64,000 nt of DNA from NCBI GenBank assembly GCA_963755025.1, contig CAVWIH010000014.1, positions 352,001 through 416,000 on the forward strand, written 5' to 3'. Position 1 is the first letter of the stretch. Each line of letters begins with the position of its first letter. Positions 19,926 to 45,388 of the stretch are shown here, in pieces. The position numbers were made by a program, and so were the translations under genes. The notes under the pieces are model-generated. The model was not told where the DNA came from. It did not search any database and saw only the letters and a list, made by a program, of their open reading frames with translations. This DNA comes from an uncultured Actinomycetes bacterium. Its GTDB lineage: Bacteria > Actinomycetota > Thermoleophilia > UBA2241.

Positions 19926-21429
19926 CTACCAGCGGGTGATGACGACCTTGCTGTCGGTGAAGAACTGCACCGCGTCTCTGCCCTGGCCGTGGAGCGTGCC
20001 GAAGAACGAGTCCTTCTGGCCGCCGAACGGAAAGTACGCCATGGCCGCGGCGATGCCGAGGTTCACGCCGATGTTGCCGGCCTGCACCTCGTACCAGAAG
20101 CGGCGGGCATGGCGCCCGCTCGTCGTGTAGATACTGGCCGCGTTGCCGAAGGGCGACGCGTTCGTGACCGCGATAGCCTCGCCCAGGTCGCCGACGCGCA
20201 TGAGCGACGCCACCGGGCCGAAGATCTCCTCCTGGGCGTGGGTCATGTCCGGGGTGACGTCGTCGAGCACGGTTGGCCCGATGAAGTAGCCGCCCTCATG
20301 GCCCGGCACGACGACGTCGCGACCGTCGAGCAGCAGCGTGGCGCCCTGCTCGATCGCGGTGGCGATGTAGCGCCGCACGCGCTCGAGGCTTTGCGCCGAG
20401 ATGACCGGGCCCATGTTGACCGACTCGTCGAGGCCGGGTCCCACCTTGAGACGGCTCGCGGCCTCTACGAACTTCGCTTTAAGCTCGTCGTAGACGCCGC
20501 CCACGGCCATGAGGTTGGCGCCGGCCAGGCAGCGCTGCCCGGCGCAGCCGAAGTACGACGACATCAGGTTGCCTGCCGCGCCGCTCGACCTCGGCGTCGG
20601 GCATGACCGTCACGAAGTTCTTGGCGCCGGCCTGGCAGAGGGCGCGCTTGCCGGTCTCGCCGCAGCGCGCGTAGATGTTCCTGGCGACCGGGGTGGAGCC
20701 CACGAAGGTCACGCCCTTCACCAGCGGGCTGTCGAGGATGGCGTCGACCGCCTCCTTGTCGCCGTGCACCAGGTTGAGCACGCCGTCGGGCAGGTCGGCC
20801 TCTTGCAGGATCTCGAAGGTGCGCAGCGTGGTCAGCGGCGTGCGCTCCGACACCTTGACCACGAAGGTGTCGCCCGCCGCCAGCGCATAGGGCCAGAACC
20901 AGAACGGCACCATGCCGGGAAAGTTGAAGGGCGTCACGCAGGCAAAGACGCCCAGCGGCTGGCGCACGGCGGCCTCGTCTATGTTGCGCGCCGCGCCGTC
21001 TTCGAGGTTGTAGCCCATCATCAGGCTGGTGATGCCGGCCGCGGTCTCGACGTTCTCGATCGAGCGCAGGGTCTCGCCGCGCGCTTCGTCGATCGCCTTG
21101 CCGTTCTCCTGACTGGTGATGCGGGCGAGCTCCTCGTGATGGCCGTCGAGAAGCTCCTTGATCTTGAACAGGTAGCGCGACCGCACGAGCGGCGGGGTCG
21201 TGCGCCACTCCCAGAAGGCGTCGTGAGCCGCCTTGATGGCCCTGTCGGTCTCGGCTTTGGTGCTCATCGGCACCCTGGCGATCGTCGCGCCGGTGGCAGG
21301 GTCGATCACGTCGCCGTGACGCTCGGTCTCTGAGGCGACCCACTCGCCGTCGATGAAGTTGCGGATGGTCCCGTAGTCGCGCTTGTGCGGTTCGAGCAGG
21401 TGGTAGGTGCTCTCGGCTGTGTCGGTCAT
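19926..21429 (-). CDS. mmsA: CoA-acylating methylmalonate-semialdehyde dehydrogenase; apparent frameshift near 20575
   Basis: TPFNFPGM, FVGSTPVA, GAKNF, GQRCLA, EEIFGPV, FPFGGQKDSFFG. Confidence 0.85.
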
Positions 21430-21718
21430 GGTGCGGCACGTCCTCCTTGTCGGTCGCCCGGCCGGGTGGCGTTCAGCACTGCACCTGTTGTTTTGCCCAG
21501 CCACGCGGGCGCCGGCGCACAGACCGCCGATGGGGTGGCGGATCGGCCGGACCGGTCGGTCTCTCAGGGGTCTCACAAGAGATGCACAACAAGCCCCCAG
21601 CTGCACCGGCAATAACCCCTGCAAAGCCATGCAATCAGTGGGCTCATGGGCCGTGCGGCGATCGGGCGAGCGCTGGTCGAAAAACGCCGGCGCGGGCAGC
21701 GAGGCAACGGAGGAACTC

Positions 21719-29029: not shown

Positions 29030-30541
29030 ATGGCAACAGACCCAGTCACTCAGACGAGCGACGAACAGATCCTGCAGACGTTCGGATACCGGCAGCAGCT
29101 CAGGCGCTCGCTCAAGCCCCTGGCCGTCCTGGGCATCTCGTTCTCGTTCATGTCGATCACCACCAGCGTCTACGTGAACTTCGGGTTCGGCCTCGGCAAG
29201 TTCGGCACCGCCAGCATCTGGTTCTGGCCGCTCGTGCTCCTTGGCCAGTTGTTCGTCGCCTTCGTGATCGCCGAACTGGGCTCGCGCATACCCTTGGCCG
29301 GCTACTCCTACCAATGGGGGTCGCGCCTGGTGAACGCGGGCTACGGCTGGTTCATCGGCATCTTCGTCTTCGTCTACCTGCTGACGTGCGTGGCGACGAT
29401 CAGCTACGTGCTCGTCGCCCCCTTCATCGGCGTCATCTTCGGCTGGTCGCTCAGCAACCTCGACCTGCTGCTGATCGCGATCGCCACCGTCGTCGTGCTC
29501 ACCCTCGTGAACCTCGTGGGCGTCAGGCTCTTCGCCCGGGTCAACAATGTGGCGGTCTTCTGCGAGATCGTCTCGACGCTGGTGATTGCCCTCATCGTGG
29601 CCATCGCCGCCCTCGCCAAGCCGGCCAGCCACACTGTCTCGCTGTTCAACACCAACGGCGTGCACGGCTCTGCCATCTGGGGCGCCGTCGTGGGCGCGAT
29701 GGTCATGGGCTTCTTCGCCCTCACCGGCTTCGAGGCGGCCGCCGACATGTCCGAGGAGAGCGTCGGCGCCCGCCGCGCCATTCCCCGCGCCGTCATCTGG
29801 TCACTGGTGGGCACCGGCCTGTTCGGCATGATCGCCCTCATCTGCTTCGCCTCCGCCGTACCCACCGGCCACATGGCCGCCGTCGCCGGCTCATACACGC
29901 CCGTCTACGACGTGGTCTCCTACTGGCTGGGCAGCACCGGAGCGCGCGTGGCCCTTGCGTTCCCGCTGGTGGCGGTGCTCGGCACCTGCCTGTCGGTGGT
30001 CGCCGTGATGGGCCGGCTGATCTTCGCCCTCTCGCGCGACAACGTCGTGCCGTTCTCAAAGCAGCTGCGCGGCGTCAACGGCAGGTCGCAGGTACCGACG
30101 GTCGCGCTCGTGGTCGGCTCACTGCTCGCCATCGCGATGCTCGTCTACGCCTACTACCAGGTCAGCACCTTCGACGTGCTGGTCGGCGCCACCTCGATCC
30201 TGCCGTTCGTCTACTACCTGCTGATCGTGGTCGCCTATGCATTCAAGCGTCGCGAGCTCGAGGCGTTCCACGTGCCCGGCATGTTCACCCTCGGCAAGTG
30301 GTCCAAGGTGGTCTTCGGCATCGCTTTCGTCTGGCTCATAGCGGCGCTGCTCATGCTCACGCTGCAGCCCATGTTCCACCAGGCCGACATCGCCGTGCTC
30401 GGCACGCTGGGCGTGGGGGTCGTGTGGTACGTAGCGGCGCTGCACTGGCGCATCAAGGCCGGCAAGGCCGGCGCGCCCGCGGGCAGCTCAGACGGCGCCG
30501 AAGAGCTCCCGGCGCCTGAGCCGACCGGGGTGGGCGTCTGA
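29030..30541 (+). CDS. APC-family amino acid/amine permease
   Basis: About 12 TM; FGYRQQLRRSL, AELGSRIPLAGYSYQW, GFEAAADMSEES, FALSRD. Confidence 0.9.
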   Translation: MATDPVTQTSDEQILQTFGYRQQLRRSLKPLAVLGISFSFMSITTSVYVNFGFGLGKFGTASIWFWPLVLLGQLFVAFVIAELGSRIPLAGYSYQWGSRLVNAGYGWFIGIFVFVYLLTCVATISYVLVAPFIGVIFGWSLSNLDLLLIAIATVVVLTLVNLVGVRLFARVNNVAVFCEIVSTLVIALIVAIAALAKPASHTVSLFNTNGVHGSAIWGAVVGAMVMGFFALTGFEAAADMSEESVGARRAIPRAVIWSLVGTGLFGMIALICFASAVPTGHMAAVAGSYTPVYDVVSYWLGSTGARVALAFPLVAVLGTCLSVVAVMGRLIFALSRDNVVPFSKQLRGVNGRSQVPTVALVVGSLLAIAMLVYAYYQVSTFDVLVGATSILPFVYYLLIVVAYAFKRRELEAFHVPGMFTLGKWSKVVFGIAFVWLIAALLMLTLQPMFHQADIAVLGTLGVGVVWYVAALHWRIKAGKAGAPAGSSDGAEELPAPEPTGVGV

Positions 30542-31480: not shown

Positions 31481-31534
31481 AGTGGACCAACGCACAGTGT
31501 CGGGTCAGGAGCGACCGAGAATGGAGCTGAGCCT

Positions 31535-33001
31535 ATGAAGCGCAATCTGCAGGCGGGGGCGCGACGCAGCGCCTTGCGCCTTGAGGTCTTCACCGAAGCG
31601 GACCTCGACGACATCCACCGCGGGACACTCGAGATCCTCGAGCGCACCGGCGTGTTCGTCGAAAGCGACGAGGCCCTCGACGTGATGGCCGACGGCGGCT
31701 GCCGGGTCGATCGCGAGACCAAGATCGTCAAGATCCCGCCGTACATCGTCGAAGACGCCATCCGCTGGTCGCCGAGCACGGTGACGCTCTGCGGGCGCGT
31801 GCCCGAGAACGACGTGGTGCTCGAAGGCGGCCGCGTCGGCTTCACCAACTTCAGCGCCGGCATCATGGTCATCGACCCGCGCACCGACGAGTACCGCAAG
31901 TCGACCACGCAAGACGTCGCCGACCTCGCGCTCATCACCGACTACCTGAGCGAGATCGACACCTACGAGCACTCCGTCGAGGGCCGCGACGCGCCCGAAG
32001 AGACGCTGGCCGTGCGCGACACGGCGCTCGCCTTGAAGAACACGACCAAGTGCGTCGGCACCGGCGCGCTCTCCACCTACGACGTCGACGCCATCGTGGC
32101 CATGGGCGCCGCGGTGGCCGGCGGCGAAGACAAGCTGCGCGAACGGCCGCTCGTCTACTTCTGCGAGTGCCCGGTCAGCCCGCTCAAGATCACCCGCGAC
32201 GCCGCCGAGGTCATCATGGGCGCCGCCCGCCACGGCTTGCCCAACAACGTGATCTCCATGGCCATGGCCGGCGCGTCGTCGCCGGTCACCCTGGCCGGCA
32301 CGCTGGTCACCCACAACTGCGAGGTGCTCGCCAGCCTCACGCTGGCGCAGCTCACCGAGCGCGGCGCGCCGACCATCTACGGCTCGTCGACCACCGCCAT
32401 CGACCTGCGGCTCGCCGCGGCGTCGGTCGGCTCTCCCGAGCTCGGCCTGCTCAGCGCCAGCGTGGCGCAGCTCGCGCAACGTTACATGCTGCCCAGCTTC
32501 GTAGCCGGGTTATAGGCAGACTCCAAGCTCAGTGACATCCAGGCCGGTCACGAGAAGACCCTGACCGCCCTCATGGCAGCGTTGGCAGGCGCCAACCTGA
32601 TCTACGGGGCGGGGATGACCGAGTCGGGTGTCACCTTCGATTACGCGCAGTACGTGCTCGACAACGACATGGCGAGAATGATCAAGAAGACGGTGGCGGG
32701 CATCTCCGTCACCGACGAGAACCTCGACCTTGCCGACATCCACGCCGTGGGCTCGTTCGGCGACTACCTGTCGCTCGACTCCACGCTCAAGCACATGCGC
32801 GAGCTCAGTCAGCCGCGGTTCATGGACCGTCGCGTCCGCGAGGACTGGCAGGCCATGGGCGCCAAGGACGCCTACTCCGCCGCCAAGGAGGCGGCGAAGC
32901 AGATCCTTGACGAGCACAAGCCGCTGGCCCTGCCGGGCGAGGTGGCCGACAAGCTCGACGCCATCCTGCACGACGCCGAAGTCCACGGCGGGGTGGTCTG
33001 A
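31535..33001 (+). CDS. mttB: Trimethylamine:corrinoid methyltransferase, pyrrolysine-containing (mttB1; 488 aa, Pyl327)
   Basis: ORFs 31535-32515 and 32573-33001 are in the same frame, joined across TAG 32513-32515: [45 protein letters not shown], the canonical MttB Pyl context. Confidence 0.92.
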
Positions 33002-33013
33002 GGCCCAGCGTCT

Positions 33014-33058
33014 CAGGGGAGCGGCTTCGGGCTTGCCCGAAGCCGCTCCCCTGTTCTT
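33014..33058 (+). terminator. Intrinsic terminator after the full-length mttB1
   Basis: CAGGGGAGCGGCTTCGGGC-TT-GCCCGAAGCCGCTCCCCTG followed by TTCTT. Confidence 0.8.
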
Positions 33059-37906: not shown

Positions 37907-39499
37907 TCAGGCCTCCTCGAGCACCGACGGCGCGGCCACGGCCGCCGGCAGCGCTGCCTCTGTCGCTCCCGAGGTCTCGCCGTCGAGCGCCAGCAGATCG
38001 CTGTCGCTCACGGCGCCGCTCGCGAGGTTGCGCCTGCCGATCAGCCAGAACACCGCGCCGGTGACGAAGAAGAAGCCGAGCGTGCCCAGCGTGACGGTCT
38101 CGAAGAAGACGCGAGAGACTCCCCAACTGGTCTCGATGTCGTAGCTCATCCCCAGCGCGCGATCGAGCAGCCCGGGCCAGAGCAGCGTGATCGCCGTGAG
38201 CACGATGATCGCCTCGGAGAGGATCACGCAGACCCACAGGCCGACGGTGCCGCCCGGCACCCGGAACGGGCGGCGCCGGTCGGGATACTTGCGCCGCAGC
38301 GGGATCACCGAGGGGAGCATGAAGAAGTACATGAGCGCCGTCAGCGAGATGACGAGCGTGACCATGACCGTGAAGAAGCTCTGCAGGCTGCCGCTCGTGA
38401 GCAAGAAGACCAGGGCGACGAAGATCGAGCCGATGACCGCCGAGACCACGTTCATCACGACCGGCGTGCCGGTGCGCCTGGAGAACGTGCCGAGCCACAG
38501 CGGCCCGGCGCCGTCGAGGCCGGCCACCGCCTGCACGCGCACGGCGCCCTGCAGCCAGACGCCGCCGGCGCTGATCACGGTGAGCACGACGAGCGCGCCG
38601 ATGAGGTAGTTGAGCCCCGTGTGCAGGCCACCGTGCAGCACGCCGGCGACCGCGAAGTAGGTGTCGGCGAAGCCGGTCGCGTTCGTGAGCTTACTGGCGG
38701 GGATGACGAGCAGCACACCCAGGATCAGCGAGCCCGTGACGAAGCAGGCCACCAGGCCGGAGCGCAGGATCATGACCGGCACGTCGCGCTGGGCGTTCTT
38801 CATCTCTTCGGCGGCGCCGTTGGAGAGCTCGAACCCTACGAAGAGGAACTGCAGCAGCCCGATCACCGCCAGAAAGCCGGTGACGCTGGGCTTGACCGAC
38901 GACAGGGTCACGGTGCCGGCCGGTTTGCCGTGGCTGATGAGGAAGGCGACGACGAGCACCAGGAAGATGGCCAGCATGAGCAGGCGCACGATCGTGCCGA
39001 GGATGCCGGTCCACTTGCCCCACTTGAGCTCGACGAGCGAGAGGCCCACGATCGCCCACACCACGGCGATGCCCACGACGATCGAAGGCAGCGTGCCCAT
39101 CGGGTTCTTCAGATAGAAGGTGTTGATCGCGGCGACGACCGCCGCCGCCAGCGTGCCGCCCATCCACACCGGGTTGCTCATCCAGTAGAAGACCGAGGTG
39201 AGCGCGCCCGGCAGGCGGCCAAAGGCCATGCGCGGCCACACGTAAGGCCCTCCCTCCACGGGGAAGGTCGAGCCCAGCTCCGCGACGATCATGCCGTAGG
39301 GCACGAGCCACACGAGGAGAATGACGATCAGCCAGAAGAAGGTCTGCCCGAGGCCGTAGGCCGCGGTCACCGCGATCGTGTCGAGGCTGATGAAGGCGGC
39401 GATGGTGAAGAAGACGATGTCGAAGCGCGTCAGGACCTTGCGCATCTTGGCGCGCTCCTGGCCCATCGCACCGGCCGTGGGGTCAGGCAGGGCGCTCAT
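37907..39499 (-). CDS. APC-family permease (candidate methylamine permease)
   Basis: AELGSTFPVEGGPYVW, GFELSNGAAEEMKN, RPFRVPGG; ATGA overlap with the corrinoid gene. Confidence 0.88.
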   Translation of the reverse strand: MSALPDPTAGAMGQERAKMRKVLTRFDIVFFTIAAFISLDTIAVTAAYGLGQTFFWLIVILLVWLVPYGMIVAELGSTFPVEGGPYVWPRMAFGRLPGALTSVFYWMSNPVWMGGTLAAAVVAAINTFYLKNPMGTLPSIVVGIAVVWAIVGLSLVELKWGKWTGILGTIVRLLMLAIFLVLVVAFLISHGKPAGTVTLSSVKPSVTGFLAVIGLLQFLFVGFELSNGAAEEMKNAQRDVPVMILRSGLVACFVTGSLILGVLLVIPASKLTNATGFADTYFAVAGVLHGGLHTGLNYLIGALVVLTVISAGGVWLQGAVRVQAVAGLDGAGPLWLGTFSRRTGTPVVMNVVSAVIGSIFVALVFLLTSGSLQSFFTVMVTLVISLTALMYFFMLPSVIPLRRKYPDRRRPFRVPGGTVGLWVCVILSEAIIVLTAITLLWPGLLDRALGMSYDIETSWGVSRVFFETVTLGTLGFFFVTGAVFWLIGRRNLASGAVSDSDLLALDGETSGATEAALPAAVAAPSVLEEA

Positions 39500-40137
39500 G
39501 TCGTCGACGCAGCAGCGACCAGGGCCTTGGCGCGGTCGACCGCCATGCCGGCGTTGGCGCCGTAGCCGTCGGCGCCCAGCGACTCGGCGAAGGCCTTTGT
39601 GACCGGCGCGCCGCCGACCAGCACCTTGACCTGCTCGCGCAGGCCGGCGTCCTGCAGCGCGGCGATCGTCTCGGCCATGCGCGGCAAGGTGGTGGTGAGC
39701 AGCGCGCTCATGCCGAGGATGGTCGCGTCGTGCTCCTTGACGGCCGCCACGAACTGCTGCGAGGTGACGCCGGTGCCCAGGTTGACGACCGTGAAGCCGG
39801 CGCCCTGCAGCAGCATGCCGACCAGGTTCTTGCCGATGTCGTGCAGGTCGCCTTCGACCGTGCCGATCACCACGGTGCCCAGGCCCCCGCTATCGCCGGC
39901 CCCGAGGTGCGGCTTCAAGATGTCGAGCGCGCCCTGCATGGTGCGCGCGCTGAGCAGCACTTCGGGAATGAAGCAGTCGCCCGAGCGCATGCGCTCGCCG
40001 ACCACGTCCATGCCGGGCAGCAGCGCGTCGTCCAGGATCTCGCGAGCCGGGGCGCCGCTCGCCAGCAGCGCCTGGGTGAGGGCGTTGACCGTGTCGGCGT
40101 TGCCGGCGATCAGCGCCTGCGTGAGTTGCTCTTTCAT
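39496..40137 (-). CDS. Methyltransferase cognate corrinoid protein (MttC/MtbC family)
   Basis: Cap domain FIPEVLLSARTM; B12-binding GDLHDIGKNLV...SALLTTT...VGGAP. Confidence 0.92.
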   Translation of the reverse strand: MKEQLTQALIAGNADTVNALTQALLASGAPAREILDDALLPGMDVVGERMRSGDCFIPEVLLSARTMQGALDILKPHLGAGDSGGLGTVVIGTVEGDLHDIGKNLVGMLLQGAGFTVVNLGTGVTSQQFVAAVKEHDATILGMSALLTTTLPRMAETIAALQDAGLREQVKVLVGGAPVTKAFAESLGADGYGANAGMAVDRAKALVAAASTT

Positions 40138-40209: not shown

Positions 40210-41683
40210 TCAGGCGACGCCGACCAGCCGGTCCGTCTGCTCGACGATGGCGTGCATGCGCGCGGCGATGTCGTCGGGGATGGGCTCGGGCCGATACTCG
40301 CGCACGACGTCGCGCGCCTTTTCGAGGCAGCGTGGTGTAGAGCTCCTTGGAGCCGCGCGCGTCCCACTCCTCGCGCACGCGGCGATCGAGGAACTGCGGC
40401 TGGCTGAGCTCGCGCATGTGGAGCAGCGTGGCGTCGAGCGAAAGGAAGTCCCCGAACGGACCGACCTGCACGATGTCCTCCACCGCCAGCGTCTCGTCGT
40501 TGACCCGCACTCCACCGACCACGCGCTTGATCATGCGCGCGAACTCGTTGTCCATGACGAACTGTCCGCAATCGAAGGTGACTCCCGACTCGATCATCCC
40601 CGCACCGTAGATCAGGTTGGCCCCTGCCAACGCTGCCATGATTCCGGTGAGGGTCTTCTCGTGCCCGACCTGGGCGTCACCGAGCTTGGCATCCGTCTAT
40701 AACCCGGCGACGAAGCTCGGCAGCAGGTAGCGCCGCGCCATCTGGGTCACCGCCGCGCTGATCATGGCGAGCTCGGGCGAGCCCACGCAGGCAGCCGCGA
40801 GCTTCAGGTCCATGGCCGTCGTGGACGACCCGTACATCACCGGGCAGCCACGCTCGGTGAGCTGCGCCAGCGTGATGCCCGAGAGCACCTCGGCGTTGTG
40901 GGTGACCAGGGTGCCGGCCAGGGTGACCGGCGAGGAGCCGCCCGCCATGGCCATGCTCAGGATGTTGTTGGGGATCCACCAGCGCGACGTCTCGATGATC
41001 ACCTGGGTGGCGTCGCGCGGCAGCTTGAGGGGGCTCACCGGGCAGACGCCGCCGTAGAGGATGGGGCGGCGGCGCAGCTCGTCGGCGCCGCCGACGACCT
41101 CGGCCGCCATCTCGAAGATCGCCCTCGCCTCGATCCGCGACAGCGGTCCTATGCCGATCGGCTTGGTCGTGTTCAGGAGCTGCGCCTCGGTGTGGTGGAC
41201 GGCGGCGGTCTCGGGCGGCACGTCGCTCGCTCCCACGGCGGTCTCGTGGGTGTCGATCTCGCTCAAGTAGTCGTTGAGACGGGCGATGTCGGCGATGTCC
41301 TTCTTGGTCGAGTTACGATACTCGCCGGTCTCGACGTCGATGACCCTGATGCCTTCGCTGAAGTTGGTGAAGGCCACGCGACCCGGCTCCATGACGAAGT
41401 CGTTCTTGGGGTTGTTGCGGCCGTACAGCACGTACCGGCTGGGCGCGGAGCGGATGGCGTCGTCGACCACATGCGGCGGAAAGCGCACGATATGCGTGTC
41501 GCGGTCGACCATGCAGCCGCCGTCGGAGTAGATGTCGAGCGCCTCGTCGTCTTCGACGAAGACACCGGCACGCTCGAGGACTTCGAGACTGGCGAAGTGG
41601 ATCTCCTCGAGCTCGGATTCGGTGAACACGTTGACGCTGAGGCCGCCGCTGCGCGGCCGGCCGGCGAAGAGGTTGCGTTTCAC
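40210..41683 (-). CDS. mttB: Trimethylamine:corrinoid methyltransferase, pyrrolysine-containing (mttB2; about 490 aa, Pyl329); apparent 1-nt frameshift near 40330
   Basis: LPSFVAGL-TAG(40699-40697)-TDAKLGDAQVGHEKTLTGIMAALAGANLIYGAGM in frame. The terminal segment CLEKARDVVREYRPEPIPDD...* (40210) is in a shifted frame and aligns with the mttB1 C-terminus. Confidence 0.88.
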
Positions 41684-42507: not shown

Positions 42508-43991
42508 CGCAGCTCCTGGTCGGCGGCGGCGACGATGCGCCGCAGCTCCCGTACCTTGTCGTCGGCAAGCGGCGTGGGCACGTAGTGCTCGAGAATATCG
42601 AGCCCGCGCTCGCGAGCGACCTCGACGGGGTTGCGGTAGTGGACGCCGTCGGGGCCGATCTCCTGTCCGATCGAGCGCTCGACGGTCTCTTTCATGTGCC
42701 GCCGGGTATGCGGCTGACCCAAAAAGTGCCCGCCCGGCCCCACCGCGTCGATCACGTCGAGGGCCAGCGTCTCCTCGTCTAACTCGACGTCCTTGAAGGC
42801 GTTGGCGGCGCGGTGGTAGAGGTCGTCGTCGAGCATCATGTGCTCGGGGGTGAACAGCTGATAGCGATTGGTGAGGCCGATCGTGGTCATGAGCTCCGAG
42901 CCGACGAGGCTCGCCACCATCAGCGTGTGCGCCGTCTCGGCGGCGGCCAGCCAGGTGCCCGGCAGGTCGTCGTCTGTGCCAGCGTACCCGCTCATCGCCG
43001 GCAGGCCGAAGTGGTGCACCAGCTCGGTCGGCAGGAAGAGGCCGCGATGGTTGAGCGGCGCCGTCGTCAGCGCGGCCGTGCGCGGATCGGCGTGCACCGG
43101 CAACGGAAAGAGGATCACCGGCGCGCCCGGGTGGGCGAGCTGGATGAGCACGGTGGCGCTGATGAGCTCGGCGAAGCCCATGACGTAGGCGCCGGCCTTG
43201 GTCGCCGGCGCCGTGGTGCCGAAGGTCGGCATGGTCACGAAGCACACCGGAATGCCGGCCTCGGCAAAGACGAGGGCCGCTTCGATCCCGTCCTTGTCGT
43301 TGACCAGCGGCTGCACGGTGCCGATCAGGTCGCTCATCGGCGGCCGGCGCCGCAGCTCCTGCGGGCCGCCGGCGACGACCGTCGCCATCTCCACGGCGTA
43401 GCGCGCCTCGCGCTCGCCCTGGACCATACCCTGGAGGTGCTTGCCGGTGTTGTTCCAGGCCGCCTCCAGCTCGTGCAGCGTGTGCGTGTCGCCGCAGTCG
43501 GCGGCGGCCACGTTCGGCCACCAGAACTGCAGCGAACCGAGGTAGTCGATCATGCGGGTGATGGCTTCGAGGTCTGTCTTGGTCGGCTGGCGGCGCACGC
43601 CGTCGTGCCAGTCGATGACCTCGGTGCCGCAGCCGTTGGTGGTGTTGAAGGTGTCGCCGCCGGCGAGGTCGAGGTCGCGCTCGCCGTCGCGCGAGCCCAG
43701 CCAGAAGTCGCGCGGCGCGCTCGCCAGGGCGCGCGTCACCAGGTCGGGCGAGAGGCGCGCGATCCCCGTGGCGCGGTCGACGCGCGCGCCGTGCTCCTCG
43801 AGGATGGCGAGCGTCTTGGGCGAGGCGAAGCGCACGCCGGTGCGCTCCAGCACCTGCAGCACCGCGTCTTTGTAGCGGTCGAGTCGCGCGCGGTCGTAAA
43901 AGGTCGCCTTGAAGTCGGAGCGCAGCGGCAGGAGTGGTTGCGGCCGGCTGAGGTCGAGGTGGGAACGGCCGAGGTCGAGTTGGCTAGTCAT
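42504..43991 (-). CDS. Non-pyrrolysine MttB-superfamily methyltransferase (mttB3, 495 aa)
   Basis: VLERTGVRF, TTAPATKAG, GLPAMSGYAGTD (no amber at the Pyl-equivalent site), VGPGGHFLGQPHTRRH; ATGA overlap with the mtbB stop. Confidence 0.85.
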   Translation of the reverse strand: MTSQLDLGRSHLDLSRPQPLLPLRSDFKATFYDRARLDRYKDAVLQVLERTGVRFASPKTLAILEEHGARVDRATGIARLSPDLVTRALASAPRDFWLGSRDGERDLDLAGGDTFNTTNGCGTEVIDWHDGVRRQPTKTDLEAITRMIDYLGSLQFWWPNVAAADCGDTHTLHELEAAWNNTGKHLQGMVQGEREARYAVEMATVVAGGPQELRRRPPMSDLIGTVQPLVNDKDGIEAALVFAEAGIPVCFVTMPTFGTTAPATKAGAYVMGFAELISATVLIQLAHPGAPVILFPLPVHADPRTAALTTAPLNHRGLFLPTELVHHFGLPAMSGYAGTDDDLPGTWLAAAETAHTLMVASLVGSELMTTIGLTNRYQLFTPEHMMLDDDLYHRAANAFKDVELDEETLALDVIDAVGPGGHFLGQPHTRRHMKETVERSIGQEIGPDGVHYRNPVEVARERGLDILEHYVPTPLADDKVRELRRIVAAADQELR

Positions 43992-45388
43992 GACGTCACT
44001 CCCGTCAGGGTCGTGTGGCGCTTGAAACACTCCACCGAGTTCACCGGCACGTCGAGCGTCTCTGCGATATGGAACTTGGCCGCGATGGCGCCGGGCTGGT
44101 CGGGGTAGGTCAGGTCCTGCACCGGGATGCGGCCAAGTCCGAAGTCGCGGCGCAGGTCGTGCATGGCGATCGTGTCGCTCAAGTCGAGCACCGAGCAGCC
44201 GAGCTTCTCGGCGACGTAGCGCTTGGCCTGCGGGAGACGCATGCCTCGGGTGATCTGCATGCGGGCTACCAGGTCTCCGGCGGTCCGCATTCCGCCCATA
44301 CCCGAGGCGAGCGCGTGAGTGGAGGCTATCCCCAAAGGATCCCCCACGCCTACCTACAAGCCGTCGAGCTTGAGGATGTCGACCAGCGCGCGTGAGGCGC
44401 GCGACGTGGCGTCGACCGGAGGGTAGGGGCTCATCGGCACGCCGCCCACACCCATGCCGGCGTTCATGTGGACGGGGATGGTCGCCTCGGCGGTCACCGG
44501 CTTCACGAGCGCGCAAGCGCGCGCCGTGTTCCAGGCCAGCGACTTGGTGGTGTTCACGTTGACCGCCGGACCGAAGATCGTGGCGCCGGCCGCCGTGACG
44601 GCGCGCAGCTGGTCGAGCGGCCACATGCCGGCGAGGCGGCGGCCCTCGTACTCGAGCTCGCCGTGCATGCCGAGCACGAGCTCGCCGGCCTGGCCGACCT
44701 CGACCCCGATGTCGGGCCAGCGATCGCGGACCTGCCTGACGACCCGCAGCGTAGCCAGCAGGTCGGCGTCGCCGGCCGCGCCGGCCGTGTCGAAATCGAG
44801 GCCGTCGGCGCCGGCCGCGATCATGGTCTCGGCGACGATCAGCATGTCGTGCTCAAGGAGGCCGACGGCCTCTTCCTGGGCGCGGCGCGCTTCTTCGATC
44901 TTGCCCAGGGGCAGCAGCTGCGACCAGTTGTCGGCGGGGCCGTCGGGCTTCGAATAGCGGCCGAGGTCGGGCATGGCGCCGTAGTTCAGAGGGACCACCG
45001 TCTGCAGTTGGGCGTCCTTCATCATCTGCGCCTGAAACGAGAGCACGGTGCGCACGGCCTTGTAGGAGTAGTCGAGGTGCCAGAGCTCGAGCGAGTCGGC
45101 GCCGTGGTGGTTCTGGTAGACGAGCTGCTCGGTGACCGGATGCCCCAGGTCGCCGTTGCCGGCACCGTCGAAGCTGAGCACGACCTCGTCGCCGTAGTCG
45201 ACCGCGGTGAACTTCGATGGCGAGGTGAAGATGTCCAACAGGTGCGCGAGCTCGTCGGCGGCGAGCGGCTCCACCTTGGCGCGCCGCACCGCGGCCGCGA
45301 CTCCGGCCTCGAGGTCGGCCTCGATCTCGGCCGGCGTCATCTCGGCAAGGGAGCCGTCTCCGAGGCGTGTGGGTATGCGATGCGCCAT
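43988..45388 (-). CDS. mtbB: Dimethylamine:corrinoid methyltransferase, pyrrolysine-containing (466 aa, Pyl345)
   Basis: TRLGDGS, DYSYKAV, YGAMPDLG, DFDTAGAAGDAD; then LKLDGL-TAG(44356-44354)-VGVGDPLG...SGMGGMRTAGDLVARMQ...AKRYVAEKLG, the canonical MtbB Pyl context. Confidence 0.92.

Follow-up and report, generated by a model that had tools for sequence, protein, structure and literature searches.

An MttB-type methyltransferase gene with an in-frame amber codon at the pyrrolysine position in an uncultured bacterium of the Thermoleophilia lineage UBA2241

MttB of Methanosarcina barkeri, known from the structures 7XCL, 7XCM and 7XCN, is the main point of reference for pyrrolysine (Pyl) containing methyltransferases of the MttB family (Li et al. 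2023, PMC9842639). In this enzyme residue 334 is named Pyl334, Gly110 is said to be 100% conserved in 66 sequences, and the mutant Y364F has lost most of its activity (PMC9842639). In bacteria, comparable systems have been described in the Olavius delta-1 symbiont, in marine Deltaproteobacteria and in Desulfitobacterium (PMC1976440, PMC8318568). These systems have PylSn and PylSc, encode MttB and MtbB without MtmB, combine selenocysteine (Sec) and Pyl in one genome and use UAG as a frequent stop; a dual code has been described in Deltaproteobacteria (PMC8318568). PylRS has been counted in two Actinobacteria (PMC9630628). Some metagenome-assembled genomes of peatland Actinobacteriota express Pyl-encoding mttB and mtbB, and the genus Bog-752 is among the most active methylotrophs (Ellenbogen et al., mSystems 2024, PMC10805028). 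As to how the Pyl codon is told from a stop, a canonical RNA structure has been given for mtbB and no common one for mttB (PMC3639795), and according to a 2025 paper no organism is known to have a mechanism that targets Pyl insertion (PMC12626013). A term search found no occurrence of PYLIS or hairpin in the accessible text of PMC13663744.

Here, we describe mttB1, a gene in a window of 64,000 nucleotides (the whole stretch of DNA that was analysed) from an uncultured actinobacterium assigned to UBA2241. In the accessible part of the literature we found no report of pyrrolysine or mttB in Thermoleophilia, or on this topic for UBA2241. The host has the same trait and belongs to the same phylum as the peatland Actinobacteriota, and residues 1-174 of mttB1 share 97% identity with a public record that bears the title 'bog_752'. 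In the accessible part of PMC10805028 we found nothing on pyl genes, the number of paralogues, variation in the active site or signals in the mRNA, all of which are given here. The features of the mttB1 region, in positions of the window, are:

29030..30541, plus strand: APC-family amino acid/amine permease gene upstream of mttB1 (profile match; not kept beside orthologues)
31523..31526, plus strand: GGAG, Shine-Dalgarno-like, 8 nt 5' of the mttB1 start codon (sequence)
31535..33001, plus strand: mttB1, Pyl-type MttB-superfamily methyltransferase (488 aa on read-through; TIGR02369 670.6 bits; model TM 0.95 to 7XCL)
31853..31858, plus strand: Ser107-Ala108, aligned with Gly110-Thr111 of M. barkeri MttB (alignment)
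32513..32515, plus strand: in-frame TAG, codon 327, corresponding to Pyl334 of M. barkeri MttB (reading frame, alignment, homologue conservation, bridging contigs)
32581..32596, plus strand: hairpin of 6 bp closing an AGGC loop, at +69..+84 counted from the U of UAG, a candidate recoding signal (rare codons, paired changes)
32603..32605, plus strand: Tyr357, corresponding to catalytic Tyr364 of M. barkeri MttB, retained (alignment)
33014..33053, plus strand: intrinsic-terminator-like 18-bp stem with T-rich tail directly 3' of mttB1 (one such stem was seen against a shuffle mean of 0.8, so that the count alone does not exceed chance)

The original prediction placed an in-frame amber at the Pyl site of mttB1 and expected a product of MttB length, 488 amino acids, on read-through. 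Both statements hold. The frame runs from ATG 31535 to TGA 33001 with a single amber at residue 327 (context of 21 residues not shown), and its translation has 488 residues. In the phmmer alignment residue 327 stands opposite residue 334 of M. barkeri MttB, which is X in 7XCL and K in 7XCM. The score with TIGR02369 (trimeth_pyl) exceeds the curated cut-off of 525 bits, and an AlphaFold2 model built on a 31-sequence alignment (pLDDT 89) shows the MttB TIM-barrel fold. With M. barkeri MttB, mttB1 shares the amber column, Tyr364, Met249, Gly372, length and fold at 41% identity. The non-Pyl enzyme MtgB (PDB 2QNE, 9YCE) belongs to the same superfamily and has the same fold (30% identity, TM 0.91), but it acts on glycine betaine, has no amber and, in the alignment, no equivalent of Tyr364; it aligns to mttB1 with 207 bits as compared to 371 bits for M. 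barkeri MttB.

A TAG within a frame may also be a true stop or a sequencing error, which would make mttB1 a pseudogene or a split gene of 326 + 142 aa. Such a split is suggested by an in-frame ATG (32573), separated from the TAG by 19 codons. Inspection of the sequence, however, revealed no Shine-Dalgarno-like site 5' of this ATG, and the 19-codon stretch carries the conserved D-x-K...HEKT motif. These codons had been predicted to match mttB2, the second amber mttB of the window, and to be under protein-level selection. The match amounts to 12 of 19 identical residues (63%). Protein constraint is evident, but fixed rare codons reveal constraint at the RNA level too, so the conservation of the stretch is not a pure protein argument.

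Conservation of the codon itself bears on the same alternative. We compared 103 distinct homologues with 45% identity or more (from fetched loci picked among the best matches, not a random sample); the Pyl column is TAG in 102 of them and TGG in one. It is likewise TAG in all 81 genes of the 80 best-matching loci out of 589 from metagenomes; by their GC3 of 0.80-0.97 these genes are probably kin. No stop is present at this column in 28 more distant homologues of the same alignment. Twenty of the 150 best 50%-cluster representatives terminate at the Pyl column, as expected for amber-truncated gene calls; the stop codon of the 20 is not visible. Close homologues occur in 27 named loci, 20 of Thermoleophilia (one of them UBA2241) and seven of Actinomycetes or Actinomycetota. 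Independent contigs bridge the mttB1 TAG as well. All seven differences of DNA contig X1 (31904-32589) and all four of RNA-library contig X4 (32380-32737) lie elsewhere, and none of the 16 listed differences (18 in total) of RNA-library contig X16 falls on the codon. The RNA-library contigs across the TAG come from two studies; they are no proof of transcription. Because homologues and independent contigs have TAG in the same column, the mttB1 TAG is neither chance nor sequencing error. The claim of a genuine amber has thus withstood scrutiny, since the alignment with O334 holds and none of the listed differences of the bridging contigs gives a sense codon.

A Trp-type MttB was observed at L094:5813-7273 (minus strand; G009:C11). 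It is about 50% identical to the amber clade, has Trp (TGG) at the Pyl column and Glu at the Tyr364 column, and is devoid of the hairpin codons discussed below. No close orthologue of it was found among the matches listed from 89 family genomes. Trp at the Pyl column is also present in 9 of 44 other cluster representatives printed, which points to a Trp-type group near the Pyl clade. As a clean control of the kind 'lost amber, lost hairpin' this paralogue is weakened by a placement support of 0.69 and by the wide spread of Trp-type relatives.

The host genome (3.37 Mb, about 70% GC, 84% complete) was searched for the machinery of Pyl decoding. On contig C10, pylB, pylC, pylD, the tRNA-Pyl(CUA) gene (C10:71096-71168) and pylSn are consecutive, and pylSc follows 4 kb further. 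Hence pylT, pylS (Sn and Sc), pylB and pylD are all found in the genome of mttB1, with profile scores above the cut-offs (in bits) for PylB (423/348), PylD (173/150), PylSn (126/51) and PylSc (278/178). A second tRNA-Pyl call on C14, obtained at relaxed stringency, was rejected for its broken acceptor stem. PylC exceeds the cut-off in 11 of 12 genus genomes and PylSc in 80 of 89 family genomes. Of 401 genomes sampled from the phylum as a whole, only two exceed the TIGR02369 cut-off, the host genome included; this sample holds one other family member, and at most three candidates were scored per genome. The pylC of the assembly has a one-base insertion as compared to three relatives, which counts against decoding of the UAG as Pyl, and none of the independent contigs listed bridges it. 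Similar frameshift breaks were seen in mttB2 (near 40330), in the mttB on C21, in one mtbB on C11 and in several non-Pyl mttB. Several breaks of the same sort suggest assembly indels, which are their likely cause; for mttB1 they lend some weight to a sequencing error at its TAG.

The same genome uses TAG as an ordinary stop. In our own crude gene calls it terminates 916 of 2841 genes, ribosomal-protein-like genes included, which likewise speaks for a true stop in mttB1. A genetic code in which every TAG is read as Pyl has been described for archaea. Its feature, TAG depleted or unused as a stop, is absent from the host. A crude hexamer screen of TAG-ending genes revealed no new Pyl protein beyond MttB and MtbB, its output being mostly adjacent in-frame genes. 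Set against the conserved TAG of the homologues, the bridging contigs, the post-TAG motif and the pyl set of the genome, pylC with its insertion included, a true stop or a sequencing error is very improbable. Our best explanation is instead, with high confidence, that mttB1 is intact and that its UAG is decoded as Pyl, which would yield a 488-residue corrinoid-dependent enzyme, a predicted tertiary-methylamine demethylase. The UAG is very likely read as Pyl because it stands at the Pyl position of the methanogen enzyme and because the host carries the Pyl genes. Since TAG is otherwise an ordinary stop in this host, decoding is likely context-dependent.

Several further observations were made around the pyl genes. 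Homocitrate synthase-like and homoaconitase-like (two subunits) genes lie directly upstream of pylBCD (L031:1-5600; G000:C10:61803-66561), together with a homoisocitrate or isopropylmalate dehydrogenase-like gene; these names are readings of the open reading frames. The products could possibly supply lysine for Pyl synthesis. Both pylSn (L031:10319-10657) and a neighbouring corrinoid gene (L031:12330-12980) themselves terminate in TAG, and this could feed back on read-through. One non-Pyl mttB is preceded, at about 350 bases, by a tRNA-Sec gene (G000:C24:14507-14604); the host has tRNAs for both Sec and Pyl. TGA codons inside two MttB matches (L008; G014:C4) were rejected as selenocysteine, both lying upstream of the start codon. 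Three small family genomes of 1.7-1.9 Mb (G018, G020, G051) are without most MttB genes; in G020 and G051 nothing exceeds the PylSc cut-off, and G018 retains PylSc and one mtbB. They are possible controls for TAG usage.

mttB1 is one of many methyltransferase genes in this genome. The window itself encodes further members and their neighbours:

37907..39499, minus strand: APC-family antiporter/permease of the mttB2 cluster (profile match)
39496..40137, minus strand: gene next to mttB2 for a corrinoid protein of the cognate type, the closest candidate for a methyl acceptor (profile match)
40210..41683, minus strand: mttB2, amber paralogue; TAG 40697-40699, hairpin 40616-40631 (one-base insertion near 40330 as compared to three relatives)
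42516..43901, minus strand: non-Pyl MttB-superfamily gene without internal stop
43988..45388, minus strand: mtbB, amber dimethylamine-type methyltransferase; TAG 44354-44356, AGAC-loop hairpin 44268-44281 (TIGR02368 422 bits, cut-off 369)

An aldehyde dehydrogenase gene (methylmalonate-semialdehyde type by our own reading) appears to be split over two frames on the minus strand of the window (20479-21630 and 19926-20564).

In the host as a whole we count five amber mttB, about 20 non-amber MttB-family genes and seven amber mtbB, one of them broken, and thus 12 amber methyltransferase genes as compared to eight in the Olavius delta-1 symbiont (PMC1976440, PMC8318568). No mtmB match was found in the host genome (84% complete). 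In these respects the host resembles the Deltaproteobacteria and Desulfitobacterium, which likewise pair PylSn with PylSc, have MttB and MtbB but no MtmB, combine Sec with Pyl and stop frequently at UAG. It differs from the M. barkeri system by being a 70% GC actinobacterium with split PylSn and PylSc and with five amber and about twenty non-amber paralogues, by the absence of mttC next to mttB1 and by the missing mtmB. Ten corrinoid-domain matches, two RACo activators and one gene that we read as AcsE/MtqA-like (a pterin-binding methyltransferase) are present. No acetyl-CoA synthase was detected in the host genome at its 84% completeness, which counts against our best explanation; 60 of 89 family genomes have it.

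For mttB1 itself we observed a conserved amber codon opposite Pyl334, the pyl genes of C10, the fold and the retained Tyr364 and Met249; the later steps are drawn from Methanosarcina biochemistry. PylB, PylC and PylD would produce Pyl from lysine, PylSn and PylSc would charge tRNA-Pyl(CUA), and the charged tRNA would compete with the release factor at the mttB1 UAG. The amine would then add to the Pyl imine, assisted by a water held by Tyr364 and the carbonyl of Gly110 (from PMC9842639). The methyl group would pass to one of the host's corrinoid proteins, reactivated by a RACo/RamA-type protein, and onward to tetrahydrofolate via the AcsE/MtqA-like methyltransferase. There is no corrinoid gene adjacent to mttB1, a further point against this explanation. 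Since mttB1 is solitary and a comparison of the window with 27 named loci revealed no gene kept beside its orthologues, the enzyme would borrow its corrinoid partner from elsewhere in the genome.

The lack of a conserved neighbour in the same comparison led us to reject deduction of the substrate from the neighbourhood. mttB1 retains Tyr364, Met249 and Gly372 of M. barkeri MttB as Tyr357, Met242 and Gly365, but has Ser107-Ala108 in place of Gly110-Thr111 and Glu at the position of Leu218. Gly110, a feature of canonical trimethylamine MttB, is replaced by Ser107 in 25 of 25 members of the mttB1 clade (support 1.0), all of which have NFSAG and the Glu (FCECP) at the Leu218 position. The name mttB, which the original prediction had used, is appropriate as to family; with Ser-Ala at Gly110-Thr111, trimethylamine specificity is not assured. 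Accordingly, Pyl may be inserted while this subfamily demethylates another amine, a larger or second-charged N-methyl amine, with the paralogues split by substrate. Variation in the Gly110 column, which is sorted by clade in the 103 homologues (S 42, G 38, D 19, C 2, A 2), agrees with such a split, as do the clade-wide NFSAG and Glu, the presence of Phe at the Tyr364 column in 3 of 103 homologues, the position of four of the five host paralogues in separate clades or far apart within one, and the higher TIGR02369 scores of the Gly-bearing paralogues (728 and 711 as compared to 668). The 20 truncated cluster representatives have mostly Gly in the column (G 15, D 2, A 1, S 1, L 1). Against another amine speak the retained Tyr364, Met249 and Pyl, the absence of any substrate hint from the neighbourhood, and the fact that Gly110 acts by its main-chain carbonyl, which Ser may keep (PMC9842639). 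As Gly110 works via its backbone, Ser at this position may be a neutral change. On balance, another substrate is a serious possibility, though one we consider somewhat doubtful. Trimethylamine is the single most likely substrate, at about an even chance; we do not go higher because the subfamily departs from the canonical pocket. mttB1 is therefore not filed as a canonical trimethylamine orthologue, although it probably functions as such. Amber MttB genes in which Phe naturally takes the place of Tyr364 were observed in L055, L059 and L126 and in the metagenome loci L276, L285, L291 and L309.

The best candidate for a context that would favour Pyl decoding is a hairpin with an AG-R-N tetraloop downstream of the amber. 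It is found in 12 of 12 amber methyltransferase genes of the host and is preserved through rare codons (below 7% genome usage) and compensatory changes. Counted from the U of UAG, the loop lies at a distance of 75 bases in mttB and 81 in mtbB. At six of 482 positions in amber mttB (n=185), over half of the sequences use a rare codon; these six lie 6-42 codons 3' of the TAG. The codon at +24 is rare in 185 of 185 sequences and provides the first A of the AGGN loop closed by the stem +69..+84. Among 101 distinct sequences the pair +70/+83 is U-A in 80, C-G in 14 and unpaired in seven; the C-G form requires an Asn-to-Ser change and occurs in at least three separate clades. Six pairs are formed in 68 and five in 13 of the 81 metagenome mttB. 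Amber mtbB (n=60) behaves alike: five of 445 positions pass the rare-codon test; one of them directly precedes the TAG and the other four follow it. The codon at +26 is GGA in 60 of 60, giving the first A of an AGAY loop. This loop, 81 nt after the amber, is found in the mtbB of the window (44268-44281, minus strand) and in the six other host mtbB and mirrors the AGGN loop of mttB. Each of its seven pairs holds in 43-46 of 46 sequences, and the pair +75/+90 occurs as C-G, U-A and A-U. All these sequences are kin from the window lineage. The codon just 5' of the amber (32510-32512; mtbB 44357-44359) is rare TTG or TTA in 59 of 60 mtbB and in about half of mttB, which suggests a 5' context effect.

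From the same genes we derived a rule that asks for a stem of 5 or more, an AG-R-N loop and a loop start between +72 and +84. That it recovers each of the 12 amber methyltransferases is circular. The background of the rule is low, with matches at 6 of 902 other TAG ends, 3 of 1684 TGA ends and 1 of 237 TAA ends; the six TAG matches were rejected as new Pyl genes, all having a negative coding score after the TAG. The five host mttB paralogues, too few sequences, gave no covariation signal, 104 of 500 shuffles reaching the pair-count score. The mttB1 region has z -2.3 as compared to dinucleotide shuffles, yet 40 of 300 codon-resampled controls are as stable, and we rejected whole-region folding energy as support for the hairpin. 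The Rfam model PYLIS_3 (RF02510) matches mttB1 with 77.3 bits (gathering 38), and PYLIS_2 (RF02509, mtbB) also matches above its gathering score. Several of the few pairs of PYLIS_3 are non-standard in mttB1 and the conserved hairpin lies outside this model, whose consensus does not have it; the match reflects likeness of coding sequence and was rejected as structural proof. The PYLIS_2 consensus already holds an AGAC-loop hairpin at the place of the mtbB hairpin. We found no statement of an AG-R-N loop common to mttB and mtbB in the literature searched, which did not extend to subscription papers and supplements. The hairpin common to the amber genes of the host contrasts with the bacteria of PMC1976440, for which no common RNA structure after Pyl codons was described.

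Pyl may also be inserted by plain competition between tRNA-Pyl and the release factor, with the hairpin serving mRNA stability, protection from termination after drop-off at the UAG, or pausing. Reviews state that E. coli needs no cis element (PMC8211752). The loop lies 75-81 nt downstream in our genes, beyond the distance of the bacterial SECIS, which is nearer to its codon. The 99-nt region as a whole is not unusually stable by the codon-resampled controls, the mtbB hairpin alone has z +0.36, and a crude motif search of the host revealed one EF-Tu and no obvious extra elongation factor. In contrast, nearly every position with fixed rare codons is found, in both families, among the first 42 codons 3' of the TAG, and data cited in PMC3639795 indicate that downstream structure raises Pyl incorporation. 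We give plain competition nearly an even chance. That a post-TAG hairpin common to two unrelated gene families helps to distinguish UAG from a stop is what the codon patterns may indicate.

The Pyl-mttB trait is already in print for Actinobacteriota (PMC10805028), and mttB1 is one more well-supported case, in a lineage whose recoding was previously noted only briefly. The fresher leads are the tetraloop hairpin of mttB and mtbB and the non-canonical active-site residue. For annotation, standard gene callers cut such proteins at about 327 aa. The presence of PylSc in most family genomes makes the trait relevant to peat and soil carbon. The extreme codon bias of the 70% GC genome exposes constraint at the RNA level and offers exact synonymous and compensatory changes. 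As a tentative and rather unlikely extension, Thermoleophilia would mark their Pyl UAG with a cis-acting AG-R-N tetraloop (stem of 5-7 bp, about 75-81 nt downstream), arisen independently in the non-homologous mttB and mtbB, that lets UAG remain a stop in about a third of the genes, while the amber MttB paralogues including mttB1 would also spread Pyl chemistry beyond trimethylamine. If the hairpin is a true cis signal, it would be the long-sought bacterial PYLIS.
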